DNA from: an uncultured archaeon
Lineage (GTDB): Archaea > Iainarchaeota > Iainarchaeia > Iainarchaeales > Iainarchaeaceae
Reading direction: 5' to 3'
NCBI GenBank assembly: GCA_964577555.1
Contig: CAZNZM010000001.1
Location: forward strand, 12,684-76,683
Length of the DNA: 64,000 bases
Shown here: positions 35,449-63,854 of the stretch, in pieces
How positions within the stretch are numbered: the first letter of the stretch is position 1
Layout: the number at the start of each line of letters is the position of its first letter
Made by a program: the position numbers and the translations under genes
Notes under the pieces: generated by a model
Databases searched by the model: none
Told to the model about the DNA's origin: nothing
What the model saw: only the letters and a program-made list of their open reading frames with translations

Positions 35449-35967
35449 TTGAGAAACATGATTGATTTTGTCAAATTGATTTTTTATGTTGCGCCAATGT
35501 ATTTTGCAAACAGCACTGCAATGCTTTTTGGAGGCAAAACCCCGATAGATTTTGGGGTAAAATTTATTGATAAAAAACCTTTGTTCGGCAAAGGAAAAAC
35601 AATAAAAGGAACTTTAATTGGAATTGTTTGCGGCTCGTTCGCTGGACTGATTATTTCAATTTTTTATAAAAACGAAATTAGCATGTTGTTCACGAATTAT
35701 TTTTTGTTTTCAATATTAACGTCCATTGGAGCCATTATCGGAGACATTATCGGGAGTTTTATTAAGAGAAGGCTTGGAATTGATTCTGGAAAAGAGGCGT
35801 TTATACTTGACCAACTTGATTTTATAATTGGCGGAATTGTATTTGGTTTGGCTGTCTATTCGCCGAGCGCTTTGGAAATTGCTTTTATTTGCGTAGCTAC
35901 AATTATAATACACAAAGTTTCAAATTGGATAGCATACAAAGCCAATTTAAAAAAGGTGCCATGGTGA
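35449..35967 (+). CDS. carS: CDP-archaeol synthase CarS (DUF46)
   Basis: About 170-aa 5-TM protein. GDIIGSFIKRRLG and LDQLDF motifs match the CarS cytidylyltransferase family. Confidence 0.62.
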   Translation: MRNMIDFVKLIFYVAPMYFANSTAMLFGGKTPIDFGVKFIDKKPLFGKGKTIKGTLIGIVCGSFAGLIISIFYKNEISMLFTNYFLFSILTSIGAIIGDIIGSFIKRRLGIDSGKEAFILDQLDFIIGGIVFGLAVYSPSALEIAFICVATIIIHKVSNWIAYKANLKKVPW

Positions 35968-36551
35968 CAGAAAAAAAAATGCGATGGGCTGTGAAAATAG
36001 ATGAGCCAGAAACAAAAAAAGAAAAAGAATTCTCGGAATTTTTGGACAAATACACTAAAAATTATTTTTGGATTGAAAAAAGAGAGGCTTTTTTTATTCT
36101 AAAATTTTTTGCAATATTTTTGATTTTGGAATTGGCTTTGCACATTATCGGTTTTGAACAGTTGCAAAACATGATTGCAAAAAGTCAAGCCAAAGTATTT
36201 AATCTCGTGTCTGAAGGAAATAATATTTTTCTTGATGCAGGAGTTTTTGAAATAAATCCTTCATGCACCGGGCTTGTAAGCGGAATAATATTGGCTGCAA
36301 TAATTTTTTCTTTGAAGAAGCCTGATTTGCCAAAAAAAATTTTTATATTGATTTCTGGTTCTTTGGTTCTTTTCGTGATTAATTATTTCAGAGTATTGAT
36401 TGTTATTTGGGCTGGAATTGAATTTGGCATGCAGGCAGCTGAAGCTGTTCATGTAGTTTCCTGGTTTTCAACGACTTTTTTCGTTTTTGGGGCATGGTAT
36501 TACTTCACAAAGCTTGTAAGCGGTGCAAAGAATTTTGACGATTTTATTTAA
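35961..36551 (+). CDS. Exosortase/archaeosortase-like membrane protein (putative, short)
   Basis: Polytopic protein with a Cys in an INPSCTGLVSG context, reminiscent of the exosortase CSG active-site motif. Weak call. Confidence 0.3.
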   Translation: MVTEKKMRWAVKIDEPETKKEKEFSEFLDKYTKNYFWIEKREAFFILKFFAIFLILELALHIIGFEQLQNMIAKSQAKVFNLVSEGNNIFLDAGVFEINPSCTGLVSGIILAAIIFSLKKPDLPKKIFILISGSLVLFVINYFRVLIVIWAGIEFGMQAAEAVHVVSWFSTTFFVFGAWYYFTKLVSGAKNFDDFI

Positions 36552-46021: not shown

Positions 46022-46789
46022 TTAAAGCTTATAAACAAGAAAAAAAACCACAATTATTGCTATTATTGCAATTACAATAACTTTAAAATCGTCGTTCAGC
46101 AAATTTTGTTCGGCGTGTTTGTTGTTGTGCTTTGAATTCCTGTTTGGCAAAAAAAAATCAGTGATTGAACTTATAAAACTTGATATATACTTAAACCATG
46201 TCCTTAAATTGAACATTTCAACATAAGCTTCGCGAAGCAATTCTCGTTTGGTTTTTTCACGCAATGGTGGATTGCCGTCATCAATCAATTCTTTTGTAAC
46301 TGCATTCATTGTTGCAACATAGTTTATTTCATCAAGAGTGTATTCCAATACCCAAAATGGAACAAAAACCAATTCTATTCCAGAAATTATTACATTATTT
46401 TTTGAAGCATTTTTTTCAGCGGAGAGTGCAACCAAAATTATTTTTTTTACATCGCGTTCTGAAATTCTCGGGCTGACAACTTCATATTTGTAGTCATGCG
46501 TTATTTCGGGAGACTTGATTCCGGATTCCAATACAGCCAAGTCGGAAAGTTCATGCGCTATTTCGTTGGTGAAAGCGTTGAAGGCCGAGTGTCCTTTGGC
46601 AATTATTTTGGTTTTTCCTGAAGATTCATCGTATATGTCGTATGAAAAAAAATAATATGGCAGGTACTTTATGTAAACTCTTCCAAATTGGTAATTATTA
46701 TAGCCTTTTGAATCCAATATGCGAGAAACTGTTTCTTCTGCGGTGATTATTTCAACATTTACGGAAAAAGCTGGTTTCTCGAGAAGCAT
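46022..46789 (-). CDS. Hypothetical tail-anchored protein (cytoplasmic domain plus C-terminal TM) co-transcribed downstream of sepF
   Basis: 255-aa ORF with a single C-terminal hydrophobic helix. No family recognised. The 13-bp gap to sepF suggests an operon. Confidence 0.4.
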   Translation of the reverse strand: MLLEKPAFSVNVEIITAEETVSRILDSKGYNNYQFGRVYIKYLPYYFFSYDIYDESSGKTKIIAKGHSAFNAFTNEIAHELSDLAVLESGIKSPEITHDYKYEVVSPRISERDVKKIILVALSAEKNASKNNVIISGIELVFVPFWVLEYTLDEINYVATMNAVTKELIDDGNPPLREKTKRELLREAYVEMFNLRTWFKYISSFISSITDFFLPNRNSKHNNKHAEQNLLNDDFKVIVIAIIAIIVVFFLVYKL

Positions 46790-50927: not shown

Positions 50928-51013
50928 ATCAAAAAAAAAGCTTTTATTGAAAGAATTTAATATATTAATGTCTATTCTTATAACAAAACTTATAACAAAA
51001 AAGGTGCTTTCCT

Positions 51014-54000
51014 TTGAAAAACCTGTATCAAATCTTGCAAAAATTGATTTTATTGATTTTTTTAACTGTTTTGCCTAGCGTGGCCCATGCAGGAATAAGT
51101 TGTGGCGATACAAATTTTGTGTGCGTTGTTACAGGCACCAACACTACCTCGGCAAAGTTTGTGGATGGCAATACTTACGTTATAAATGGCGCAGTTATAT
51201 TTCAAAACAGCGGAGTGGATTTAAACATAGAACCGGGCGCAGTAATAAAGTTTGTTCCTAGTTCAAGTTCCTTGACAATTACGTCATCTGCAAGAATTAA
51301 TGCCAATGGCAATGCAACAAAAAGAATCGTTTTTACATCTTGCAGAGACCAAACAGTAGGAGCAAATACTTCAACCATTCCGTCATGTTCTGGTAATCCT
51401 TTGGACCAGGATTATTCTACTGCAATATCCATAAGCAGCACTGCACAAATGCTTCCTTCTGATTCGCTTAGTTTTATGAGCATAAAATTTGCAACAACAG
51501 GGATTTCTTTGGCAAAATACATTGGAAGTATTCATGACATCAATTTCAGCAGGTTTGGAAGAAGAACTGGTTCTGGAAATGCAATAGCAATTTCAACGCA
51601 AACAGGCACTGAAATATACAATAATTCCTTTGATATAAATTCAAATAATACTAGTGGAGGAGTAAATGCAATACAAATAAGTTCTGATTACAATGGCAGT
51701 ATTCATGACAACAACTTTAATTCAAGGCTGGCATCATACGGGGTTTATGTAAGCTCAGGAAATTTTACTGGGAGTTTCCACGATAATAATGTCACAGCAC
51801 TTGCTTCGCATGGAATGGTTGTAACAACTTCCAATGATTTTAATTCTTCGATTTATAAAAACAAATTTGATATCAATGGAAACGGCGGGAATTATACAGG
51901 GGTTTATAGAAGCGGTTCTTTTTATGGGAACATATATGACAACAATTTTGACATTAAAATGAACGCCTTTGGATTTTATACTCTTGGCACGGGAAATTTT
52001 GACGCAAACATTTACCAAAATTCATTTACGGGTTTAAATTTGCCAAGAGGAATAATATTAACCAATTCAGGATATTCAAAAGCAAAAATTTATTCAAACA
52101 TATTTGACATGAATGGTTTTACAACTTCTTATGGTTATGCAATACAAATCTCTAACGATTTCAACGGAATTATAAACGACAACAATTTTCACTTGAAACA
52201 ATTCATGTATGGAATTTATCATAACGGCGCATCTTTTTACGGAAACGTTGTTGACAACAATTTCGGCTTGGACAGGGCTTATGCAATTTACCACAACTCC
52301 CCAATAATATATTACAGCGATATTAACCGAAATATTTTCTATTCGAAAACACCGAAATATGCGACTTATGTGAGAACAAATTATGGTTATTCACTTTATC
52401 AATATAGTACTGGAGGAACATTTCCAGGAAGCTTTTGTGAAAATACTTTCCAGAATTTTTTCAATAATGGGATAGTATATACCAATGGAACTTTTTCAGG
52501 GAGTTTTTGCAAAAACAAAATAACTGACGCAAATATGACAATTCCTTATTTGTTTTATGTTGGAAGCAATTTTTCTGGTTCAATAATTGACAACAATTTT
52601 TCCAATATGATTGGAAACTATACCAATGCATCATACTTTCTTTTTGGGGAGTCTTACTCTGGAGAAATAAGAAAAAACATTGTATTTGATTTTAACAATT
52701 TACTTACCACAAGCTATTTTATAAGATTGTCTGGAACTCCTACAACCGGCAACATAACAGACAATAACTTTACCAAAATAGTGGGAACCAGCAGTTTGTA
52801 TCTTATAGCATATACAGGCATTGGAACAACTTATACCAATATACAAGACAATAATATGACAAACTTTAGACTGAACGTAACACCATATTATCAATCAAGC
52901 GGAACAATGGCGGGAACCTTCAGAAGAAATAAAATCAATGACCTTAACACTCTGAACAATGCAGTAATTAACACTAGCGGGGTTTTTTCCGGCGCTGTTT
53001 ACGACAATAATTTTTCCAATTTATATAACACAAGAGTTTTTTACCAGTATTTAACCGGTTCTTTTACTGGAGATTTTAACGCAAATATTATTGACAATCT
53101 TTATTTTTCCACTGGTGGCATTGAAACCATGTCAATTGCAGGCTTTTTTTCTGGAAAGATTTATAGCAACAAAATATCAAATATTACTAATTCAAACATA
53201 ATCTATTCCACAGCAAATTTTTCAGGAAGCATATACAACAACAAGATTTCAAACATTACTGGTTCAAACGCAATTTATTCTAACGCTGCTTTTTCAGGAA
53301 ATATTTACAATAACTTGTTTGTTAAAAACAACAGCGCCGCGCATTTTATATACCATGCAAGTTCAAACGCTTTTTCCGGAAGCATTTACAATAATACATT
53401 TACAAACTTCAGAACTGGAACATCTTACGGAGTAAGAAACACAGGCAGTTTTACAGGCAATATATTAAGGAACGTTTTTACTCATGGAAGTGTTGCTCTT
53501 TCAGGAACTTTTTCAGGACAAGTAGGTTATAATGCGTTTTTTTCAATAACAACTATTGGCGGTTCGGCAAACCAACATGTTGGAGACCAAAACACCCAAA
53601 CTGGTTTTTCAAACGACCCTTTTTTGGCTGATAATAGCGACAGAAATTTCTTGTTGAACACTGACAATAATGGAGGACAAAAGCTTGTTAATACAGGAAA
53701 TATTGATTCAACCGAATTCTTCATGAAACGCACAACTTTGAGAAGCAACAAGCTTGACACAGGCATAATTGATTTGGGTTATCACTACGACCAAAATGCG
53801 TTATATGTTATAGTGCAATCGCCTAATGGCGGAGAAATAATTTCAGGAACAGAAAACATAGATTTCAACGTTGAATCCGGCTTTGGTTCAAGCAATGAAA
53901 TATTTGTTACACTTTCATATTCGCCATTCACTTCTGGCGGGACGCAAATAACGAGCAATTCTTTGAATGCATTTGTTTGTTCTTCAGGACCTGTTTATGT

Positions 54001-57000
54001 GTGTTCTTATTCTTGGGATTCTTCTGATATTACTGATGGAAATTATTACATAATTCTGTCGGCAATGTATCAGGATAATAATACAAGCGACTCGTCAGAT
54101 CAAAATTTTACTTTGCTTTCAATACCTAAATTTGCCTTGAGAACATATCTTGGTTCAAAGCCGAGAGGATTCTTTACAAAAGGGCAGGACGTGAATATAG
54201 TAGTTTATACTACTACTGCAAATCCTTTGATAAACATAATAGAAGCAAGAACGGGCAATATTTTGGTTTCAAATGCATCTATGTCACCAACATCTCCATC
54301 TTCGGACATGAATGGTTATGCTTATTCATATAAAGTTGATGGAAATGAAGGGTGGTATGATGCAAGAATTTCAGGCAAGACATTTGAACATATATTTTAT
54401 GTTACAAATGCATGGCAGAACAGGTATGTTGACAATAATGGCATAGTAGTGCCTTTCAGTATACCTGTTGATGTCACAGAACCTGGAAAAGTGCAAAGAT
54501 GGTTTGCGCCAATACAATTAAACTTGGATTTTAATTACCTGTCAAACCCAAATGGTGTTAGGGTAATAGATTATAATGGCGACACTTACGTAGAGATACC
54601 AAGCCAAACTTATGATTTGAATTATTCTGGAACTAAAGCTTCTTCAGGCAAAGTCGCTTTCATGGCTTCGTTTGATTTGGGCGAAACAAGGAATTTTTTT
54701 GCCAATTATTCAAGGCAACAAAACCCAAAAACATATTACCCTGACATGAATCTTTCTTTTATTGACTCAAATTACATTGTGGAAAATTCCTCACTGAAAG
54801 TTGAAATAGATTTGAACCTTGGAGGAAATGTCACAAGAATATTCAACAAAAAAGGGACTAACACCAACTTGGGCGGAGCCACGCCTTCGGTCCTTTCGCC
54901 TGAATCAAAATCTGGAATATATACTTATACATCATACTCTGTTTCAAATCCAAATTATTCGCTTGATGTGAATGGCGGAATATTCAGCAAAATAAGGGTT
55001 TGGGCAAGAACTGGACAAATGGATTATAACACTACTTACTACTTTTATGCTAAGCAACCTTATTATGAAACAGACATAAATTCAAAGCCTGTGAGCACGC
55101 AAAATTGGAGTTATTATTATGATGATTACAAAGTAATGGATTCGAACAAATTTTTGGTGTTCAGTTATAATTCTGGCGGTTCAGTGACAAATTACGATTT
55201 GAATAGTAATGGCTCTGGAAGTACTCTTACTTTTGGGGATGCTAATTATTGGGGTGTTTACAACCGGAATACGAGCGATGCATTTGGCACTATGTTTATT
55301 AACAGATACAGCACTACTGGAGAATCAATCAGTTCCAAATTTTATGATGAAACGGATTACGATTATTGGACAAGACAGATGTATTCAGGAATAGTAACTG
55401 AAGCTGATAGATTCAATTCAAGAATAGGACACAACCTTTTCAACCCTTGGAATCGTCTCGGTGACCTTAACTCTGACTTCATTAGCGCAAAATACGGCTT
55501 GGCAAAAAGCATTGGAACAACGCAAACCAATGATTTGAATGCGCCTGTTTTCGTTGATTGGAATTCAACTCCTTATGATGCAAACGATTCAGCTGACTTG
55601 AATGTTTGGGCTGTTATAAACGACAATTTGCAAGTTGATTATGTTGACATAAATATTTCAGGGCCTAACATAAATATACAAACAAGGCAACAATACAACG
55701 ACGCAAACATAGTTGCTTATTATGTAATTGACTCAAATACTTTAAATGCGGGCACAATAGACGTAAATTTTAGGGCAACCGACATAGCAAAAAATTCAAC
55801 AATAAAATCTTGGCAAATAAGTGTCAGTGATTTGAAAGCTCCAAAAGTTTGGAAAATTACTCTTACGCCTGACGACAACGCAAGCATAGATCCTGATTCA
55901 AACATAACGTTTGATGCAAACATCAATGAATACACTGGAGTTTCACAAGTAAAATTGTTCATAAGATATTATAACGAAACAACACAAGGATGGAGCGATT
56001 GGAATGCTATAAGTATGAATTTTTCAAGCCAGCCTTCCGATTACAATTACAATTACACTTTGACATATAACATCCCAGCAGATCTGAACAAGCATTTCCA
56101 ATACAAAATATATACAAAAGACACGCAAGGAAACGATGCCAATTCTGATACAAACAACTTTTATGCTTACATAGATTATACTTGGGGGTTAGCTCCGACA
56201 AACTTTGGAACAAAAACAGAAGCTTTGGACGCCAACATAACAATAGGAGACATAAACATAACAAATACTGGTGATGCGCCAATCACATTTTCCATAACAT
56301 CAAATTGGGATCCTGGAAAAAACGTGTTTTTCAATTTACAACCTGGATCAACTCCTTATGAAATAACAGTAAATGCTGGACAAACAGCTTCAGTAAATAC
56401 TAAAGTAACCACAAAAACCACTGAAAGGTCAGATTCATTGACAATAACTTTTACTCCAAAAATTTCATCTGCACAGCCTCAGAATGCAACAAGTTCTGGA
56501 ACCATAATAAGTTTGGCTGGCGGGCCTTTTATGTTTGTGGAAATACCTACTTACAACCAATCAGTATTGCAAGGAGACACTGGCAAAAGTTACGTTGCAA
56601 AAGTGACAAACAAAGGAAATGAAGACGCTAATAATGTGGTGCTTGCTTGGACTTTGCCGGAAGGTTGGACCATAACTTCTGGAAGTTCTTCTGTTTCAAT
56701 ATCTACTTTGGGAATAGACGAATACTTATTCAATTCAATTGTTGTAAGCATAAGCGAAAGCGCGCAATCTGGAACAGTGACATTGACTGCTACGGCAACG
56801 CCTGATGGGAACGAATTAAAAACAAGGTCCGAATCTGTTAATGTGGTGGTGGTTTCAACACAAACAAGCCAAGCACCCACATGTAGCGATGGAATTCAAA
56901 ATCATGGGGAAACCGGCATTGACTGCGGAGGCCCTTGTCCGCCATGTGGCGGGGGAGTAGTAGGAACAAGCAGTGCATCAAGCTCGTCAAGCAGTTCTGG

Positions 57001-58333
57001 CGGAGGCGGCGGTGGAAGCATTTTTACAACAGAGGAACAAGTAAGAACTTTTTTCCAAACAGTTGAAAAATTCGAACTTGTAAGGGGAAAAGACCAGGAA
57101 TTCAAAGTAAGAATAAAGAATCCTTTCCCTGACAAAGAATTGAGAAACATAACTGCTGAAGTAACAGGGTTATTGTCAAAATACTTGAACATTGAAAACC
57201 CTGAAATACCATCGCTAAAACCCGACGAAGAAAGCTTTCTAAAAGTGAAAATAGTGGCGCCAAAATACTTTGAACCTGGAAGGCACGAATTGACTTTCAC
57301 AATAAAAGGCGTATTGTCGGTAAAAAAAAGAAACTCGATTGTTGACACTCCATTTACATTCAAAACAAATGTAACTTTATTCATAAGAGACATAACAAAA
57401 AAAGAGGCTGCGGAAATAATTTCAAAAGCAAAATCAGAAATAGCTGAATTGGTTTCAATGGGTTTGAATGTTTCGGAAATGCGAAATATTCTTGAAGAGG
57501 CGGAAATAAATATAGATGCAAACGAATACGACTTGGCGGCCAACAATGCAAACACCATATTAGCATTGGGCAAAATAGCAAAGGAAGCCGTACAAGAAAT
57601 GAAAAAACTTGACGAACTAATCAGCAAAAGCGAAGAAGAAAGGATTGACATTCCAAAAACAAAAAAAATGAGGGAATTGGCAAAACTTGCGCTTGACAGG
57701 GGAGACTTCCAAAATGCGTTGGATGTGCTTAAAGAAGCTCACCTAACACACAGCCTTGAAACAAAAGGCGCTTTCAATTATGGTTATTTCATAATGCAAA
57801 ACAGCTTTGCCATATCAACAGGCGCGATTGCAGGAATACTGTTCTTTATAGTTTCACTAATAAGTTTGAAGAGATTCTCGCTTAAAAACAAAATAAAAAC
57901 ACTCAAAGCCGAAGAAAAATTGCTGATTGAACTAATAAAAGAAACCCAACATCAATGCTTTGTTGCTGGAAAAATAAGTATGAACGAGTACCAAGATGCG
58001 TTAAACCATTATGAAAAAAAATTCACGGAAGCAATAGAAAAAATGATTGAAGCTGAAAATGAACTTATAAACCAATTAAACATCAAATCAAAAAGAACAA
58101 AACTGGCTGAAGAAAGGGAAAGAATCTTAAACGAATTGAAAGAAACCCAAAAACAATACTTCAAAGAAGGGTTGATTGAAACAAGAATGTATCAGGCAAA
58201 AATTGAAAATTTGACAAAAAGGCTGAATGAAATAGAAAAAAACATAACATATGAAGAAGCTATAAGTTCAATAAGAAAAAACAGTGGTTGGTTAAGCATC
58301 TTCTGGAGGGTTTATTATAAAATCTTCAAATAA
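51014..58333 (+). CDS. Giant (2439 aa) secreted surface protein: signal peptide, about 28 degenerate beta-helix repeats, beta-sandwich/CARDB-like domains, Cys-rich knot, Ser/Gly linker, helical stalk, TM helix, cytoplasmic coiled-coil tail
   Basis: Single uninterrupted ORF. N-terminal signal peptide (LLIFLTVLPSVAHA). N/G/S/T-rich with about 25-aa GSIxDNNF-type periodicity. CARDB-like V.N.GNEDANNV.L.W.LPEGW. CSDGIQNHGETGIDCGGPCPPC. S8G6 linker. TM FAISTGAIAGILFFIVSLISL near residue 2275, then a roughly 155-aa helical tail. Confidence 0.85.
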   Translation: MKNLYQILQKLILLIFLTVLPSVAHAGISCGDTNFVCVVTGTNTTSAKFVDGNTYVINGAVIFQNSGVDLNIEPGAVIKFVPSSSSLTITSSARINANGNATKRIVFTSCRDQTVGANTSTIPSCSGNPLDQDYSTAISISSTAQMLPSDSLSFMSIKFATTGISLAKYIGSIHDINFSRFGRRTGSGNAIAISTQTGTEIYNNSFDINSNNTSGGVNAIQISSDYNGSIHDNNFNSRLASYGVYVSSGNFTGSFHDNNVTALASHGMVVTTSNDFNSSIYKNKFDINGNGGNYTGVYRSGSFYGNIYDNNFDIKMNAFGFYTLGTGNFDANIYQNSFTGLNLPRGIILTNSGYSKAKIYSNIFDMNGFTTSYGYAIQISNDFNGIINDNNFHLKQFMYGIYHNGASFYGNVVDNNFGLDRAYAIYHNSPIIYYSDINRNIFYSKTPKYATYVRTNYGYSLYQYSTGGTFPGSFCENTFQNFFNNGIVYTNGTFSGSFCKNKITDANMTIPYLFYVGSNFSGSIIDNNFSNMIGNYTNASYFLFGESYSGEIRKNIVFDFNNLLTTSYFIRLSGTPTTGNITDNNFTKIVGTSSLYLIAYTGIGTTYTNIQDNNMTNFRLNVTPYYQSSGTMAGTFRRNKINDLNTLNNAVINTSGVFSGAVYDNNFSNLYNTRVFYQYLTGSFTGDFNANIIDNLYFSTGGIETMSIAGFFSGKIYSNKISNITNSNIIYSTANFSGSIYNNKISNITGSNAIYSNAAFSGNIYNNLFVKNNSAAHFIYHASSNAFSGSIYNNTFTNFRTGTSYGVRNTGSFTGNILRNVFTHGSVALSGTFSGQVGYNAFFSITTIGGSANQHVGDQNTQTGFSNDPFLADNSDRNFLLNTDNNGGQKLVNTGNIDSTEFFMKRTTLRSNKLDTGIIDLGYHYDQNALYVIVQSPNGGEIISGTENIDFNVESGFGSSNEIFVTLSYSPFTSGGTQITSNSLNAFVCSSGPVYVCSYSWDSSDITDGNYYIILSAMYQDNNTSDSSDQNFTLLSIPKFALRTYLGSKPRGFFTKGQDVNIVVYTTTANPLINIIEARTGNILVSNASMSPTSPSSDMNGYAYSYKVDGNEGWYDARISGKTFEHIFYVTNAWQNRYVDNNGIVVPFSIPVDVTEPGKVQRWFAPIQLNLDFNYLSNPNGVRVIDYNGDTYVEIPSQTYDLNYSGTKASSGKVAFMASFDLGETRNFFANYSRQQNPKTYYPDMNLSFIDSNYIVENSSLKVEIDLNLGGNVTRIFNKKGTNTNLGGATPSVLSPESKSGIYTYTSYSVSNPNYSLDVNGGIFSKIRVWARTGQMDYNTTYYFYAKQPYYETDINSKPVSTQNWSYYYDDYKVMDSNKFLVFSYNSGGSVTNYDLNSNGSGSTLTFGDANYWGVYNRNTSDAFGTMFINRYSTTGESISSKFYDETDYDYWTRQMYSGIVTEADRFNSRIGHNLFNPWNRLGDLNSDFISAKYGLAKSIGTTQTNDLNAPVFVDWNSTPYDANDSADLNVWAVINDNLQVDYVDINISGPNINIQTRQQYNDANIVAYYVIDSNTLNAGTIDVNFRATDIAKNSTIKSWQISVSDLKAPKVWKITLTPDDNASIDPDSNITFDANINEYTGVSQVKLFIRYYNETTQGWSDWNAISMNFSSQPSDYNYNYTLTYNIPADLNKHFQYKIYTKDTQGNDANSDTNNFYAYIDYTWGLAPTNFGTKTEALDANITIGDINITNTGDAPITFSITSNWDPGKNVFFNLQPGSTPYEITVNAGQTASVNTKVTTKTTERSDSLTITFTPKISSAQPQNATSSGTIISLAGGPFMFVEIPTYNQSVLQGDTGKSYVAKVTNKGNEDANNVVLAWTLPEGWTITSGSSSVSISTLGIDEYLFNSIVVSISESAQSGTVTLTATATPDGNELKTRSESVNVVVVSTQTSQAPTCSDGIQNHGETGIDCGGPCPPCGGGVVGTSSASSSSSSSGGGGGGSIFTTEEQVRTFFQTVEKFELVRGKDQEFKVRIKNPFPDKELRNITAEVTGLLSKYLNIENPEIPSLKPDEESFLKVKIVAPKYFEPGRHELTFTIKGVLSVKKRNSIVDTPFTFKTNVTLFIRDITKKEAAEIISKAKSEIAELVSMGLNVSEMRNILEEAEINIDANEYDLAANNANTILALGKIAKEAVQEMKKLDELISKSEEERIDIPKTKKMRELAKLALDRGDFQNALDVLKEAHLTHSLETKGAFNYGYFIMQNSFAISTGAIAGILFFIVSLISLKRFSLKNKIKTLKAEEKLLIELIKETQHQCFVAGKISMNEYQDALNHYEKKFTEAIEKMIEAENELINQLNIKSKRTKLAEERERILNELKETQKQYFKEGLIETRMYQAKIENLTKRLNEIEKNITYEEAISSIRKNSGWLSIFWRVYYKIFK
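51490..53560 (+). repeat. Degenerate roughly 75-bp tandem repeats inside the giant CDS, encoding parallel beta-helix-like G(S/N)I(Y/H)DNNF units
   Basis: A repeated peptide pattern (GSIHDNNFNSR.., GSFHDNNVTA.., GNIYDNNFDIK.., ANIYQNSFTG.., GIINDNNFHLK.., GNVVDNNFGLD.., ...) is visible in translation. Confidence 0.6.
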
Positions 58334-58349
58334 ACAAAAAGCCAGAAAT

Positions 58350-59276
58350 TTGCTTTTAATAATCGCGTTTATCGCAATTCAAATACTAATCATTAACATT
58401 ATAACTGCTGAAAAAACTGAATTGCAAGACAATAATTCCGAAACGGTTCCAGATTTTAATGCAGAAGAATTGGGAATAGTAAAGTCGGCAAAACAAGAAA
58501 TCTTTAATGCTGAAAACAAAATAAGAGACATGAAAAGAAAAGGATTGCCTACAGGCAGGGCTTTAGACTTGTTGACTATAGCTAAATTAAACCTTGATTT
58601 TGCAATTGAAAAATCCAATTTGACAAAACAAAACCCTGATCTTTTCCAATACAGGGAAAAAATGAAAGACTTTAAAAAAGTAAGCGAAATGGCTTATAAA
58701 GTCAAAGACGAATTAGTGTCTCTTAGAAAAAGGATTGATGAATCAAAAAATCTTCCTCAAATAGAAAGCGTGGAAAATCTTTACAAGCAAGCCGAATCGG
58801 AGTTTTTTGACGAAAGATTTGAAAGAACAATTGATATTATTTCTGAAGCTGACAAAAAATTGGTTGAATTATCCTCCCTGCAAACAAGAATTGAAGCAAT
58901 TTATGAAGCGGCGTCAGCCAATATAATCGCGATTGCAAAAAAATATCAAACTGAAATACTGATAGGTATAATACTGCCTCTTATTATTGGAATAATTTTT
59001 AGGCAACAAATAAAAATGATCCAAATACAACAAAAAATCAAAAGCCTTGAATTGGAAAAGAAAATTTTGAACGAGGAAAAAAAGAAAGCCCAAAACAACT
59101 ACTTTGTCAAAGGTTCTATACCTGAAAATGTTTATAAAAGCAAAATGCAGGTTTATAGCGATATGGAAAGGGAGATTACAAGAGAATTAGCAGTATTAAA
59201 AGAAGAAGAGCATAAATTAAATATTAAAAAAGATAATAATAAAGGCCAAAAACTACTAATAAAAAAAGTGAAGTGA
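58350..59276 (+). CDS. Bitopic coiled-coil membrane protein, paralogous to the stalk/TM/tail module of the upstream giant protein
   Basis: N-terminal signal/TM, helical ectodomain, TM (ILIGIILPLIIGIIF) and a cytoplasmic tail containing LEKKILNEEKKKAQNNYFVKGSIPENVYKSKMQVYSDMEREI. This aligns with the giant protein's AEERERILNELKETQKQYFKEGLIETRMYQAKIENLTKRLNEI. 17-bp gap to the upstream gene. Confidence 0.5.
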   Translation: MLLIIAFIAIQILIINIITAEKTELQDNNSETVPDFNAEELGIVKSAKQEIFNAENKIRDMKRKGLPTGRALDLLTIAKLNLDFAIEKSNLTKQNPDLFQYREKMKDFKKVSEMAYKVKDELVSLRKRIDESKNLPQIESVENLYKQAESEFFDERFERTIDIISEADKKLVELSSLQTRIEAIYEAASANIIAIAKKYQTEILIGIILPLIIGIIFRQQIKMIQIQQKIKSLELEKKILNEEKKKAQNNYFVKGSIPENVYKSKMQVYSDMEREITRELAVLKEEEHKLNIKKDNNKGQKLLIKKVK

Positions 59277-60193
59277 GTATGATAGATATAAAAAAACTTT
59301 TGTTCGGCGGCAATAAAAACAATGATAAAAACGTGCAAAATAAAGCCGACAAGAAAGAAAATAATAATGTTAAAACAAATAATGCGGGAGAAAATAAGAG
59401 TGAAAATAAGCAGGAAATCGAATCAAAGCGGGAAAAATATTTTAAAACTGGAATTCCGGGCATGGATGAATTGATGACAAGAGGTATACCTTGGGGTTCT
59501 GCGGTTATAGTTGAAGGTGGTCCTGGTTCAGGAAAAACGCTTTTTTGCCTTCAAGCAGGAATGAATGCGTGCAAAAGAGGGCTTAAAGTTCTTTATATGA
59601 GTTTTGAAGAAAAGGAGGAAAGTTTGAGAGACCACATGAGAATGTTCGGGCACAACCCTGAAGAGTATGAAAAAAAAGGTTTGTTAATGATAAAAAGGTT
59701 TAATGCTCTCGATATTGCAAGAAGCGTGGAAGCTTTGTTGAGCGAAGCCAAAAAAGAATTGCTTATAGACGTGGAAGTTGTTTTGATACCCCAAAATTAC
59801 AAGCCTGATTTGGTTTTGATAGACTCTTTGACTTCTATATCCTCCGCTTTCAGTGGGGAAGAATACAGGTTCAGGATATACATGGAACAAATGTTCAGGT
59901 ATTTGGAAAAAAACAACATAACTTCATTACTAATAAGGGAAACCCCTAAACCTACCCATACTGGCACTGATGGAACTGCCGAAGGTGGAGAAGCAATAAG
60001 CTTTCTTTCAGATGGAATAATAGTTATTTACAATGTGCTTTACAGCAATGGGGAAAGAGGCAGGGCTCTTGAAATTTTTAAATTGAGAGGGGAAAACTTC
60101 AAAAGACGCTTAGTGGAACTCACAATAACAGATAAAGAAGGCATCAGGGTTTATCCTGACAAAGTAATAAAAGGAAAATATACCTTAACATAA
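59273..60193 (+). CDS. KaiC/RadA-like RecA-superfamily ATPase (COG0467) with a roughly 55-aa K/N-rich N-terminal extension
   Basis: GIPGMDELMTRGIPWGSAVIVEGGPGSGKTLFCLQ (Walker A), Walker B LVLIDSL, single RecA domain. 4-bp overlap with the upstream gene. Confidence 0.8.
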   Translation: MSMIDIKKLLFGGNKNNDKNVQNKADKKENNNVKTNNAGENKSENKQEIESKREKYFKTGIPGMDELMTRGIPWGSAVIVEGGPGSGKTLFCLQAGMNACKRGLKVLYMSFEEKEESLRDHMRMFGHNPEEYEKKGLLMIKRFNALDIARSVEALLSEAKKELLIDVEVVLIPQNYKPDLVLIDSLTSISSAFSGEEYRFRIYMEQMFRYLEKNNITSLLIRETPKPTHTGTDGTAEGGEAISFLSDGIIVIYNVLYSNGERGRALEIFKLRGENFKRRLVELTITDKEGIRVYPDKVIKGKYTLT

Positions 60194-60231: not shown

Positions 60232-60495
60232 TTAGCTGTTTTGTTCGCTATTATTTTCTTGGCTGGCAAAATGTTCGTTTGCCTGTTGAAGAACCGAAAT
60301 CAACTTGGACAATTCGTTTGGCCTGAAAGATTTAAGCGATTTCCATTCTTCGCCTGATTTATATCTTTTTTCAATTGTTATTGTATTGTAAATTTCGCCA
60401 GTTTCCTTGGCAACATTTTCCCACACAGCCAAATGTATTTGGCCTGAAGAAAATTTTGCAACAGGTTTTGAACTGCTTTTTTGCTTGCTTTCCAT
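60232..60495 (-). CDS. Small hypothetical protein, possibly a PC4/YdbC-like ssDNA-binding fold
   Basis: Start taken at the MESKQ Met. The beta-beta-beta-alpha pattern (GQIHLAVWEN...EIYNTITIEKRYKSGEEWKSLKSF.PNELSKLISVL) loosely matches the PC4 C-terminal domain. Weak. Confidence 0.3.
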   Translation of the reverse strand: MESKQKSSSKPVAKFSSGQIHLAVWENVAKETGEIYNTITIEKRYKSGEEWKSLKSFRPNELSKLISVLQQANEHFASQENNSEQNS

Positions 60496-60612
60496 AAAAT
60501 TCACCCCTTGATGAAAGCAGAACCGAAGACTCGCACGAATAACTACTGGCACAAAATTTTTAAAATTTTCAAGAGTTGGTTGCCGGTAAAAAAAAGTTTA
60601 TTGTTGGAAAAA

Positions 60613-61254
60613 TTATTCGCTTGAAGCCCATGATTTTATTATTTCAAGTGATTTTATTTGTTCGTCCAAATCCTTTATTTTCGCTTCAATATCCTTTAAT
60701 TGGGCTTCCGACACGTCAATTCTGAAGTCTTGAAGAATGTTTGCGTAATTTCCTACTTTTTTGTTTTTGTAAACAAAACTTTTTTGCACTGTTTCAACAA
60801 GGTTTTTTCTGTATTCAATGTCTTCAAGAAACATTTTTACAAGCGGTTTGTATCTTGGATCTGCTGCAAGGTGAGCTGGCAAGCCTACTGCTTCAGCATC
60901 GGCCTTGTATTCTTTGTCGGTAAGCATTTTGGAGACATGCTTCCAATAAATTGGCTCGGACAATTTCAAAACATGGTGCTTCAGGTGATAGTTTTTGGCT
61001 TCGTTTAGCTTTTTTCTCCAATCGGCTTCCTTTTTCAAAAAAAGTTTTCTCCTGTTCTTTAATTCTTCTATTTGAGTTTGGATTCGCAATGGAGAAGGGT
61101 ATATCAAGCGAGGCCAAGGTTTTTTTGAAGGCAAAGCCGATATTACCCCGCCTCGTTCAAAGTATTTTTTCAATGCATTGATTCTTTCATCGTTCTTTGG
61201 AAAATCAAACCTTTTTTGGAATTCTTCAAAAGAACTTATTATATTTGATGTCAT
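60613..61254 (-). CDS. Hypothetical cytoplasmic protein with a C-terminal coiled coil
   Basis: 213-aa ORF. No recognisable family. Confidence 0.4.
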   Translation of the reverse strand: MTSNIISSFEEFQKRFDFPKNDERINALKKYFERGGVISALPSKKPWPRLIYPSPLRIQTQIEELKNRRKLFLKKEADWRKKLNEAKNYHLKHHVLKLSEPIYWKHVSKMLTDKEYKADAEAVGLPAHLAADPRYKPLVKMFLEDIEYRKNLVETVQKSFVYKNKKVGNYANILQDFRIDVSEAQLKDIEAKIKDLDEQIKSLEIIKSWASSE

Positions 61255-61742: not shown

Positions 61743-63086
61743 TTAATTTTGTTTAATTATTTCCTGGGCTTGTATAAGCCTTATTCCGTTTCTTTTTGAA
61801 GCTATTATAAGCATGTTCATTTCTATTTCGTCTCCGTTTTTATGAATTGGTTTTACATATGCGTTGAAATAACCTTCGCGAATTGTGAAATCATAGTTGG
61901 CATCTGGAACATATATTGAATTAGCTTCTATTTTTGCTTTTCTGAAAACCGTGAATTTCAATTCATAATTTTTTTCCGTTGAATTAATGGTTTTTAAAAT
62001 TTTTTCTGAGTCGCTATTTGAAATTGTTCCTTCCAAAAAAACTTTTGGCTCTTTGATGCTTGATATTTTAAAGCCAAAAGCTTCCAATTCTTCTTTTAGT
62101 TTTTCTGCGAATTGGTTTATGTTTTCGTCTTTGGCTGTGACAATTGCTTTGTTGGAGTCCAATTGCAAGGTGAAAGAACTTATGCTTTGGTGTCCTGACA
62201 GGTAAAAGTTAAGGTCATTAATAGATATTTTTTCAGGTTCTGAAAATAAAATTGTGAAATTGAGTGATTGTGGATAGACTTTTAAGTTGGAGTTTTCGTC
62301 CAATTTTGCGAGTTCCAGTTTTGCTTTTTCAAGATCGTTTATTTTTTTTGGGGTTGATTCCGAATTTATTAAGTATTCGTTTTCTAAGCTTGAAATCGTT
62401 GATTTTTGGATTAATGAAAAAATTTCCTCTTTGGCGTCAAGGTTTGATGTTTCAACAGCATATGCAGAGACTAATTGTTGACCTGCAAATTCGGTTTGCA
62501 AGGAAATTTCTATCAAATCACCTTTTTGGGTTTCGGGAGTTACAAGTGCTTGGATTTGCGAGCCTTTGAATTGGTATTCCTGGGTTAGTCCAAGCGTTTC
62601 GTTCTTGAGTTCAATCTTTTGTGGAAGGTTTACAAGAGAATATTTCATAAATTCCAAATCTTGAAGAAAAGGAAGTTGTTTGATTTCTTCCATTAATTCT
62701 TCTATTTGGCTGGTTGATTGTAAGCGCAAGTCTGCAATGTAGTATTCGCCATTTTGTCCTGAAAACTGGGAATTTTCTACTCTAAGTACTTTGCCAGTGG
62801 AAAGTAAGGCTTTGTCTATGCTTGAAACTTCCGATTCTGAAGTCTTGGCTCCAAGCCTTATTCTTGGAAAAATATCAATTACTTTTGATTTAATGTTGGA
62901 AGCCGAATATTTTATTGTAGTGGGTTTTTGATTATTGGAAGGGGGTTGTGGTGGCGGCTTGTATTCGTCTTGGTATTGCATAAGGGCAAATATTGAACCA
63001 ACCATTAAAAGTGCAACCAAAAGTGCCACAAATTGTTCTTTAGTTATTTTCAAGATTTTACACCTTTCATCAATCTTTATATTCAA
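61743..63086 (-). CDS. Hypothetical membrane-anchored extracytoplasmic protein (N-terminal TM, Pro-rich linker, roughly 380-aa ectodomain)
   Basis: 447-aa ORF with one TM (FVALLVALLMVGSIFAL) then a KPPPQPPSNNQKP linker. No family recognised. Confidence 0.45.
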   Translation of the reverse strand: MNIKIDERCKILKITKEQFVALLVALLMVGSIFALMQYQDEYKPPPQPPSNNQKPTTIKYSASNIKSKVIDIFPRIRLGAKTSESEVSSIDKALLSTGKVLRVENSQFSGQNGEYYIADLRLQSTSQIEELMEEIKQLPFLQDLEFMKYSLVNLPQKIELKNETLGLTQEYQFKGSQIQALVTPETQKGDLIEISLQTEFAGQQLVSAYAVETSNLDAKEEIFSLIQKSTISSLENEYLINSESTPKKINDLEKAKLELAKLDENSNLKVYPQSLNFTILFSEPEKISINDLNFYLSGHQSISSFTLQLDSNKAIVTAKDENINQFAEKLKEELEAFGFKISSIKEPKVFLEGTISNSDSEKILKTINSTEKNYELKFTVFRKAKIEANSIYVPDANYDFTIREGYFNAYVKPIHKNGDEIEMNMLIIASKRNGIRLIQAQEIIKQN

Positions 63087-63134
63087 TTTTCCAAACCAAT
63101 TCTTATAAATAACAATCTCTTTTAAGGTATTATT

Positions 63135-63854
63135 TTGGTGATAAATTTGAAAGAAAAAAGCCTTGTATTGGTTGAATTTACAGGCAAAGAATTAGTTACT
63201 GGAAAGATTTTTGATACCACTTCGGAAGCTGTTGCCAAAGAAGTTGGCTTGTACAAAGAAAACGCGATTTTCAAGCCAGTGCCTGTAATAGTTGGAAACG
63301 GGGATGTTATAAAAGGCATTGATGAGGCTCTCAAAGAAATGAAGGAAGGCGAAGAGAAGGTTATCAAGCTTGGACCTGAAAAGGCTTTTGGAGAAAGGCG
63401 AAAAGACCTGGTTGTGCTTGTGCCATTGGCTGAATTTACAAACAGAAAAATCAAGCCAGTTAATGGTTTGATTGTTGAGATGAATGGAATGTATGGAAAG
63501 GTTACAACAGTTTCTGGTGGCAGAGTAAGAGTTGATATGAACAACGACCTTGCTGGAAAAGAAGTTGAATATAAATTGAAAGTTATAAAAGAAATCAAGG
63601 ATTCCTCGGAAAAAGCACAAGTTATTGCTGAAAAGTTTTTCCCGCTTAAAGAAAAAGTCCAGACAAAAATAGAGGCCGACGTAATTAAAGTTAAAATTCC
63701 TAAAGAGATTGGGAAACAGCTTGCTCCTCTTGTTCCTGCTTTTACAAAAACAGTTAAAGAAATTATTCCTGAACTCAAGAGTGTTGAAATAGTGGAATCT
63801 TTTGATGCAAAACCAGAAAGCGAAAAAAATGAAAAAAAGCAATTTGAAATTTAA
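63135..63854 (+). CDS. Long-type archaeal FKBP peptidyl-prolyl isomerase (FKBP plus IF domain plus C-terminal domain)
   Basis: FKBP core (GKIFDTT, VIVGNGDVIKGIDEAL..MK.GEEK, LVVLVPLAEF), an insert-in-flap region and a roughly 90-aa C-terminal domain as in MjFKBP26. Confidence 0.82.
   Translation: MVINLKEKSLVLVEFTGKELVTGKIFDTTSEAVAKEVGLYKENAIFKPVPVIVGNGDVIKGIDEALKEMKEGEEKVIKLGPEKAFGERRKDLVVLVPLAEFTNRKIKPVNGLIVEMNGMYGKVTTVSGGRVRVDMNNDLAGKEVEYKLKVIKEIKDSSEKAQVIAEKFFPLKEKVQTKIEADVIKVKIPKEIGKQLAPLVPAFTKTVKEIIPELKSVEIVESFDAKPESEKNEKKQFEI

Follow-up and report, generated by a model that had tools for sequence, protein, structure and literature searches.

KaiC-like ATPases of archaea were reportedly presented in 2017 by Makarova, Galperin & Koonin as 'signal transduction hubs', a group that is said to include GvpD and CirA. 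One such protein, ArlH, binds to the cytosolic ring of the single-transmembrane (TM) protein ArlX, autophosphorylates and changes its oligomeric state (PMC8978795). KaiC paralogues linked to type IV pili (T4P) belong to other contexts (PMC4858521). Studies of the surface of DPANN archaea have brought up pectin-lyase-like, Ig-like and lectin-like proteins, and no module of the kind presented here (bioRxiv 10.1101/2023.10.27.564410; 10.1101/2021.04.28.441871). The locus considered here lies in an archaeal chromosome segment of 64,000 nucleotides from contig CAZNZM010000001.1 (the window), which has a low GC content (about 35%). It comprises three genes on the + strand, encoding a giant surface protein (G1), a 'headless' paralogue of it (G2) and a KaiC-like ATPase (G3). 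Their closest relatives are from the Iainarchaeota/Diapherotrites, a DPANN lineage.

Most DPANN archaea are obligate episymbionts and have minimal genomes. The candidates put forward so far for the recognition, holding and exploitation of their hosts were lists of unrelated 'large surface proteins'. The module to which the three genes belong is a concrete and testable unit. It unites a membrane-protein family of at least 1414 clusters, hypervariable giants with the same anchor, and a highly conserved KaiC-like ATPase. It is proposed to be a conserved envelope module acting as a trans-membrane complex, in which KaiC-like rings would sit on the hairpins of the anchors and the state of the ATPase would be coupled to the surface protein; for this proposal, belief and doubt are about evenly balanced.

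Linkage, paralogy and fusion in DPANN genomes

The linkage of the genes was examined with one genome per species. From 167 loci, 80 were taken (numbered with the prefix L), their genes were called by a simple custom script, and a KaiC gene was called in 78. A G2-family gene lies within three genes of the KaiC gene in 62 of these 78 loci, and a giant with a G2-like tail lies within four genes as well in at least 31. The linked module is found in the Iain-, Woese-, Pace-, Aenigm-, Micr- and Nanohaloarchaeota, so that the trio is together in related and in distant DPANN genomes, a comparison that had been suggested as a check in a previous interpretation of the window made from its letters alone (the sequence-only reading). 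Loci without the full trio are mostly cut by contig ends. The conserved core consists of G2 and KaiC, to which the giant is often, not always, adjacent.

The arrangement was tabulated for 79 loci, the window included. G2 is directly upstream of KaiC on the same strand in 27 loci and upstream with a spacer gene in 13. It is downstream in 22, equally divided between the same strand (11) and the opposite strand (11), and is found once upstream, spaced and on the opposite strand. No G2 is near KaiC in the remaining 16. As adjacency has outlasted these changes of order and orientation, it points to function rather than to inherited order. DPANN genomes are compact, with unrelated genes tightly packed, and housekeeping genes flank the trio in the window, as would suit hitch-hiking neighbours whose synteny was inherited without any functional link. 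This explanation is disfavoured and hardly credible, since the 80 loci have no further conserved neighbour, the trio stays adjacent in spite of changes in order and orientation, and several lineages have a fusion of G1 with G2. In an all-against-all clustering, the only recurring neighbours were KaiC, G2 (65 loci) and a two-TM protein of 150 amino acids (aa; 15 loci, in Woese- and Pacearchaeota); no other cluster was present in more than six of the 80 loci.

This additional protein of about 150 aa, with a cytoplasmic helical N-terminus followed by two TM helices, is encoded between G2 and KaiC (L013, L014, L022, L023, L029, L030, L037, L044, L057, L058, L075, L079 and L080; for example L075:994-1458) and has no counterpart in the window. 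By eye, the gene after KaiC resembles a polyprenyl (geranylgeranyl pyrophosphate, GGPP) synthase in L010 (10844-11929), L006, L020 and L033, and a gene near KaiC in L008 (2930-3979) resembles a type-2 isopentenyl pyrophosphate isomerase; these putative isoprenoid lipid genes are too few for a conserved link. Some contigs with a DPANN-type KaiC are filed as 'Methanosarcinales' (L034, L050, L056, L061, L067), 'Gracilibacteria' (L040) or 'Babeliales' (L078). Most of them also have G2, L040 having neither partner nearby, and the labels are likely due to mis-binning or mislabelling.

G2 starts with a signal peptide or N-terminal TM segment, followed by an ectodomain of about 160 aa that forms a helical bundle. 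A TM helix then leads to a helical hairpin in the cytoplasm and to a Lys-rich end. Its similarity to the tail of G1 is marginal by BLASTP (E = 9e-4). A hidden Markov model (HMM) of the G2 family, built from 58 G2-like neighbours of KaiC orthologues, matches the C-termini of 34 giants, including G1 of the window, with E-values of 7e-80 for G2 and 8e-19 for the G1 tail. Alignment of the G2 family with 16 giant tails by hhalign gave a probability of 99.4% and an E-value of 3e-21 over 207 columns, which reach from the helical ectodomain through the TM helix into the first of the cytoplasmic motifs. Because these profile comparisons are decisive where BLASTP is marginal, G2 is assigned on their strength as a true paralogue of the anchor/tail module of G1. 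The sequence-only reading, which had called G2 a 'headless' paralogue, was thus correct, and the common module includes the cytoplasmic hairpin. Both proteins carry the motif of the family, a helical bundle, a TM helix and a hairpin with TQxxYF..G....Y..R. The hairpin, with the consensus LIKxTQxxYFEKGxISExxYxIRxKKFxExIRDIxRQIPLLKEEL in the G2 family, is present in one copy in G2 and duplicated in giants.

A model of G2 calculated with AlphaFold from a 12-sequence alignment is entirely helical, with a mean predicted local distance difference test score (pLDDT) of 86. An N-terminal hydrophobic helix precedes an ectodomain of five helices (aa 42-198). The fifth continues into the TM helix, and the cytoplasmic hairpin spans aa 218-307. 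The region that the sequence-only reading took for a 'stalk' is accordingly predicted as a compact bundle of about five helices, not an extended coiled coil.

The G2 family is large and without annotation. At least 1414 clusters at 50% identity were found by an index-free search at E ≤ 1e-3, and 917 at E ≤ 1e-10, while neither Pfam nor NCBIfam gave a matching family for G2. When the 60-sequence G2 alignment was compared with a set of 5.8 billion proteins, 13 proteins were retrieved, scoring being confined to the 8000 candidates with the most words in common with the query. The YF..G.I....Y hairpin, which we took to resemble a SHOCT domain, gave no match to PF09851 even at E ≤ 10, with isolated tails or with the family consensus. 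The DPANN 'dark matter' families NEQ255 and NEQ484 were ruled out by their length (178 and 153 aa, versus about 300 for G2).

G1 and G2 are joined in one open reading frame (ORF) in an aenigmatarchaeote (L025:1-10140, 3378 aa) and in a nanohaloarchaeote (L043:1-6200), and further fusions occur among database proteins (P0184, P0189, P0193, P0206 and P0242). The fusions have three TM helices, those of the tail, of the N-terminal segment of G2 and of G2 proper. The N-terminal hydrophobic segment of G2 thus forms a second TM helix that is consistent with the topology, which shows that the 'signal peptide' of G2 can be a TM helix and that G1 and G2 function jointly.

The KaiC-like ATPase and the cytoplasmic face

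G3 is identified by its profile matches as a single-domain KaiC-like ATPase of the RecA superfamily, as had been proposed, and its catalytic site is intact. It matches PF06745 with 159.8 bits (cut-off 26.6, E = 9.3e-47) over 230 of the 231 profile positions, and a profile of 21 orthologues matches the KaiC structures of the PDB with an E-value of 2e-48. The Walker A motif GGPGSGKT (aa 82-89), the catalytic EE pair (aa 112-113), the Walker B residue D184 and the KxRG motif (aa 270-273) align with those of KaiC, and GGPGSGKT, E112-E113, D184 and K270/R272/G273 are invariant in the 21 orthologues. Ser243, which aligns with the KaiC phosphosite S431, is invariant too, as is Phe244 at the position of T432. 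Orthologues with 58-88% identity are found in Diapherotrites and in the Woese-, Pace-, Aenigm-, Micr-, Nano- and Nanohaloarchaeota, and G3-type ATPases are among the best-conserved non-housekeeping proteins of DPANN.

A KaiC-like clade of known and unrelated function had been considered a possibility for G3. The clade of G3 is DPANN-wide and has no assigned function, and G3 is neither an ArlH nor a clock KaiC. With its single domain of 306 aa, G3 scores 105.5 bits against a cut-off of 408 for the clock family TIGR02655 and 59.3 bits against 546 for NF006799; KaiA and KaiB partners are absent from the window neighbours according to Pfam, and no neighbour of this kind is conserved in the 80 loci. 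The scores against ArlH/FlaH models are 35.4 bits for NF052589 (cut-off 215) and 54.8 bits for PRK06067 (cut-off 194), without arl genes among the neighbours, and no genes of a T4P or archaellum neighbour G3 in the window or its orthologues in the loci. For RadA and RadB, too, G3 stays below the NCBIfam cut-offs. The GvpD family gives a partial P-loop match only (positions 10-86 of 189, 25.7 bits for a cut-off of 24), and the window contains no gvp genes.

The segment aa 141-175 of G3, which starts with KRFNALDIARSVEALLSEAKKELLIDV, is specific to the clade, near-invariant and about 8-10 residues longer than the aligned segment of the KaiC CI domain. We take the corresponding position of CI to be the B-loop, the partner-binding loop on which KaiB and SasA presumably dock. 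The segment is therefore a candidate partner-binding surface.

Conservation of the module rises towards the inside of the cell. Mean pairwise identity is 69% for the KaiC core and 86% for its clade-specific segment. In G2, it is 41% for the cytoplasmic hairpin and 28% for the ectodomain; in the tails of the giants, 41-44% for the cytoplasmic motifs and 31% for the helical ectodomain. The heads of G1 cannot be aligned between lineages. Such a gradient would be expected for a fast-evolving head on tails that bind to a highly constrained partner in the cytoplasm.

Basic or aromatic-amphipathic termini tend to occur on all three proteins and hint at a membrane-proximal location. The peptide KKKGFF[SG][KR][IL]F is found in 6 of 183 module proteins and in 1 of 851 others, at the N-terminus of KaiC (L009, L019, L036), the C-terminus of giants (L007, L014) or the tail of G2 (L041), and the C-terminal peptide of the window G1, GWLSIFWRVYYKIFK, is related to it. 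This basic-aromatic peptide may form an amphipathic helix that binds to the membrane, or may serve in docking. Lys-rich low-complexity extensions, the length of which varies widely between lineages, are present at cytoplasmic ends of G2 (L010:8618-9913, L036:1303-2565, L041:1498-2679) and at N-termini of KaiC (for example, window 59273-59440). It is conceivable that they bind anionic lipids or nucleic acid.

A physical complex centred on the cytoplasmic face is favoured because of the natural G1-G2 fusions and the inside-out gradient of conservation. The G1 and G2 anchors would co-assemble within the membrane, and the conserved cytoplasmic hairpins of both would dock onto oligomeric, probably hexameric, KaiC-like rings lying under it. 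Binding or hydrolysis of ATP, or the Ser-autophosphorylation state of the ATPase, would set the oligomeric or conformational state of the anchors, through which the ATPase would control display, clustering or signalling of the surface protein. We infer the contact between tails and ATPase, the formation of hexamers and their stoichiometry with the anchors, as well as the direction in which coupling runs and the biological function, which may be surface attachment or envelope organisation. Likewise, the coupling may be inside-out or outside-in, and the role may be in host attachment rather than in an S-layer-like envelope, as the sequence-only reading put forward. If the three-protein complex is real, it would be the first trans-membrane input or output for the proposed archaeal 'KaiC hubs', and the tail motif and ATPase mutants would provide handles for the few cultivated DPANN systems.

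A number of observations weigh against this complex. KaiC-like ATPases are also soluble regulators (GvpD, CirA), so that co-transcription need not mean binding. No fusion of G2 with KaiC was present among ten long G2-family proteins checked, and fold searches with the G2 model returned generic helical bundles only. Among the loci with full flanks (10 kb), L015, L016, L022, L035 and L065 hold G2 and KaiC without a giant, and L017, L063 and L076 have neither partner near KaiC.

G3 could act solely as a soluble regulator that controls expression, glycosylation or turnover in the manner of GvpD or CirA, without binding to the tails; co-transcription would then merely secure co-regulation. KaiC-like ATPases have indeed been proposed as archaeal signalling hubs and regulate gas vesicles and T4P or archaella (PMC4858521; PMC5847659), to which the marginal match of G3 to the GvpD P-loop family of Pfam can be added. 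However, neither the ATPase nor any conserved neighbour has a domain for DNA binding or output, and the cytoplasmic hairpins are the most conserved parts of G1 and G2, implying a conserved cytoplasmic ligand. The basic or amphipathic termini of the three proteins also suggest a membrane-proximal site, and a role as soluble regulator alone is considered improbable.

Giant adhesins often have dedicated export systems, and the catalytic site of G3 is complete. A RecA-type hexamer might power the secretion of the giant, or its insertion into or extraction from the membrane, and G2 would be the membrane adaptor of this motor. This is very improbable, as the signal peptides of G1 and G2 are of the ordinary Sec type and the window itself contains genes for SecY and SecDF. 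A conserved polytopic partner that could form a channel is absent, only the two-TM protein of 150 aa occurring in 15 loci, and no member of the KaiC family is known to translocate polypeptides.

The giant surface protein, the envelope and the locus

By its sequence, G1 is a secreted type-I membrane protein, rich in N-glycosylation sites, in which the head is variable whereas anchor and tail are conserved (Table 1). Of its 61 N-x-S/T sequons, 59 are extracellular. The head contains regular repeats, with a GxIxxNxF ladder motif recurring every 24-29 aa, and about 1000 aa rich in Ser, Asn and Thr separate them from the NEW3/CARDB-like domain. For this domain, PF10633 scores 48.5 bits on the whole protein (cut-off 24.4, E = 1e-12), with DUF11 at E = 1.7e-4; on a piece of 360 aa the E-values are 1.6e-11 and 1e-5, respectively. 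DUF4625 matches a piece weakly (E = 1.5e-4) at a place corresponding to aa 1606-1712, and the remaining Ig-like Pfam matches on the pieces are below threshold. The Ser/Gly run is followed by another weak NEW3-like stretch and then by a helical region. The G2-homologous module begins with the membrane-proximal helical domain and continues through the TM helix to the first copy of the hairpin motif in the cytoplasmic tail, which is 154 aa long.

The knot CSDGIQNHGETGIDCGGPCPPC, the Ser/Gly hinge, the TM helix and the cytoplasmic tail described in the sequence-only reading were all located in the translation, as was a signal peptide. About 28 beta-helix-like repeats had been announced; the regularity holds, with 25 units counted, and no beta-helix family of Pfam matches the whole protein or seven pieces of it. 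The model calculated by AlphaFold from the single sequence has a pLDDT of 38, too low for use. A parallel beta-helix is presumed as a plausible fold from the repeat pattern. Of several CARDB-like domains, one is above threshold (PF10633) and the others are sub-threshold Ig-like matches only. Homologues of G1 in other DPANN loci have 28-43% identity. The N-terminal 1000 residues match 1-3 of 60 related proteins and residues 1600-2439 match 33-50 of them, so that the widely conserved part is restricted to aa 1000-2439, above all aa 1600-2439.

Table 1 Positions of the features of the locus in the window
Feature	Position	Strand	Basis or remark
Upstream intergenic region of G1	50928..51013	+	Divergent from the Hel308 gene (identified by Pfam); read from sequence
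G1 ORF	51014-58333	+	2439 aa, TTG start
G1 signal peptide, aa 1-27, ending ...LPSVAHA before G	51014..51094	+	Sequence and Kyte-Doolittle scan
G1 tandem repeats, aa 199-847, 25 units of about 26 aa	51608..53554	+	GxIxxNxF motif; self-profile
G1 NEW3/CARDB-like beta-sandwich domain, aa 1859-1929	56588..56800	+	PF10633
G1 Cys-rich knot CSDGIQNHGETGIDCGGPCPPC, aa 1957-1978, then Ser/Gly hinge, aa 1979-2002	56882..57019	+	Regular expression and sequence
G1 module homologous to G2, aa 2129-2327	57398..57994	+	G2-family HMM, i-E 5e-15
G1 TM helix, aa 2263-2285	57800-57868	+	Within the G2-homologous module
G1 second cytoplasmic hairpin copy, aa 2352-2422	58067..58279	+	Second HMM domain; alignment of 16 giant tails
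G1 aromatic/basic C-terminal peptide GWLSIFWRVYYKIFK	58289-58330	+	After the second hairpin copy
G2 ORF	58350-59276	+	308 aa, TTG start
G2 TM helix, aa 199-221	58944-59012	+	Translation and alignment of 60 family members
G2 conserved cytoplasmic hairpin, aa 222-292	59013-59225	+	Alignment of 60 family members
G3 ORF	59273-60193	+	306 aa, GTG start
G3 clade-specific near-invariant segment, aa 141-175, KRFNALDIARSVEALLSEAKKELLIDVEVVLIP	59693..59797	+	Identity and KaiC alignment
GC-rich hairpin TTGCCC-AAAA-GGGCAA	60204..60219		Between the G3 stop and the convergent downstream gene; read from sequence

The nature of G1 allows a further interpretation, that of an S-layer-type envelope pair, in which G2 would be an abundant SlaB-like stalk, G1 a headed variant or an envelope glycoprotein, and the KaiC-like protein would organise or regulate the assembly of a general cell envelope, not of a device for attachment to hosts. 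This tentative alternative, which is compatible with the proposed complex rather than exclusive of it, is somewhat unlikely. The signal peptide, heavy sequon load, Ig-like domains and C-terminal TM helix of G1 are as in archaeal envelope proteins, some loci hold G2 and KaiC without a giant, and the papers on DPANN S-layers call for a TM 'stalk' partner (bioRxiv 10.1101/2021.04.28.441871; 10.1101/2023.10.27.564410). A signal peptide, a helical ectodomain and a TM helix, which a SlaB-like stalk would have, are present in G2; its ectodomain, however, is predicted to be a compact bundle, and it has an extra conserved cytoplasmic domain. Moreover, the DPANN S-layer proteins proposed so far (NEQ300, Micr_00292, MJ1_0160) are without a C-terminal TM helix and have other domains, and the G1 heads, too variable to be aligned between lineages, suit adhesins better than a lattice protein.

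Nanoarchaeum equitans offers a lead that bears on both interpretations. The KaiC-domain protein NEQ174 (256 aa) is its third most abundant protein, and NEQ236 (336 aa, flagged for a signal peptide and TM) is an abundant 'companion' of the S-layer protein; the two are about as abundant as the S-layer protein itself (PMC3149612), which would fit an S-layer-type pair. NEQ174 and NEQ236 may be scattered orthologues of G3 and G2, which is put forward as a lead only. The proposed trans-membrane complex, if real, could account for the high abundance of a KaiC-domain protein in this organism. In a bolder form of this proposal, DPANN archaea would have in common a trans-envelope machine in which dedicated KaiC-type rings under the membrane grip the cytoplasmic hairpins of headed and headless anchors. 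Through cycles of ATP or phosphorylation, the rings would drive or sense changes of conformation, clustering or turnover of adhesins for host attachment, in an integrin-like or Mycoplasma-leg-like manner and possibly as one of the most abundant assemblies of these cells; in this form it is regarded as unlikely.

The coordinates of the three ORFs in the sequence-only reading agree exactly with the ORF list. The gap it placed at 17 bp measures 16 nt between the stop of G1 and the start of G2, and the overlap of 4 bp between G2 and G3 exists if G3 starts at the GTG at 59273 and vanishes with the ATG at 59279, 2 nt past the G2 stop; packing is tight either way. The ATG is probably the true start, since G3 was given 304 aa in an independent gene call and M-ID is the beginning of its nearest orthologue. 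The region upstream of G1 contains TATA-like boxes rich in A/T and, about 9 nt ahead of the TTG start, a GGTG ribosome-binding site. G1 alone of the three genes is preceded by such elements, and this is the sole obvious promoter region for the trio. The hairpin after G3 likely marks the end of the transcription unit. Tight packing, a single upstream promoter region and this hairpin make co-transcription of the trio plausible.

The housekeeping genes around the trio encode SecY, RNA polymerase subunit D, ribosomal protein S2, GluRS, aIF5B, aIF2-gamma, Sua5, Kae1, DnaK, DnaJ and a class I tRNA synthetase of the I/L/M/V type. Also present in the window are SecD, SecF, both subunits (small and large) of PolD, Orc1/Cdc6, Hel308 and NAC; no tRNA or Rfam RNA genes were found when they were searched for across the window. 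A membrane protein of the archaeosortase/exosortase family is encoded at 35889-36551 on the + strand (PF09721, E = 2e-10), which implies that the organism anchors other surface proteins by PGF-CTERM or by lipid. Signals of this type are absent from G1 and G2. Five flanking ORFs on the − strand have no Pfam family (46022-46789, 60232-60552, 60613-61254, 61743-63086 and 63122-63778). They are probably outside the module, since they are not recurrent neighbours in the 80 loci; the ORF of 213 aa (60613-61254) is present again in three related loci.

Comparison with known systems

The crenarchaeal archaellum motor also associates a single-domain KaiC-like protein, ArlH, with a single-TM partner, ArlX, that has an oligomerising cytosolic helical domain (PMC8978795). 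By analogy, this pair may be regarded as the closest precedent for the proposed mechanism. It differs in several respects. G3 scores 35 bits against the ArlH cut-off of 215, genes for ArlI, ArlJ or archaellins are not linked, and G1 and G2 have large extracellular parts whereas ArlX has none. The catalytic Glu pair is intact in G3, while ArlH is reported not to hydrolyse ATP.

With the cyanobacterial KaiC, G3 shares the PF06745 domain (profile E = 2e-48), the Walker A and B motifs, the EE pair, the KxRG motif and the Ser at the position of S431. It has one domain instead of CI and CII and a Phe in place of T432, no KaiA or KaiB is encoded nearby, and its partners are membrane proteins.

The SlaA/SlaB S-layers likewise place a large glycosylated surface protein side by side with a smaller, membrane-anchored helical 'stalk' protein. 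Unlike in these S-layers, G1 and G2 both sit in the membrane by means of one homologous anchor and each extend into the cytoplasm with conserved domains, and an ATPase is linked to them.

The gliding 'legs' of Mycoplasma mobile are driven by internal F1-like ATPases with a RecA fold. The resemblance is one of concept only, giant surface adhesins being mechanically coupled across the membrane to an internal ATPase of the RecA superfamily (bioRxiv 10.1101/2021.01.28.428740). The proteins are unrelated, the organism is a bacterium, the ATPase is of another family, and there is no evidence of motility or force for the module.

Membrane-anchored proteins with Ig domains or S-layer-like features are also combined with a cytoplasmic ATPase in the predicted MoxR/vWA secretion/S-layer complex of Makarova et al. 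2015 (PMC5898192). The locus does not encode this complex, the ATPase of which is an AAA+ MoxR and not a KaiC, and its vWA and DUF4350 components are absent at the locus.

In the literature searched, which did not cover the 2017 survey of archaeal KaiC neighbourhoods, no description was found of a KaiC-like ATPase together with a giant surface protein and a headless paralogue. The module resembles the archaeal KaiC hubs in the genomic linkage of an ATPase of the KaiC family to input or output partners that are specific to a lineage. It differs from them in its partner family, that of G2 and the giant tails, for which Pfam and NCBIfam have no model. Hubs of this kind, with partners that vary between lineages, are a known arrangement, to which this family of membrane partners adds the new element.

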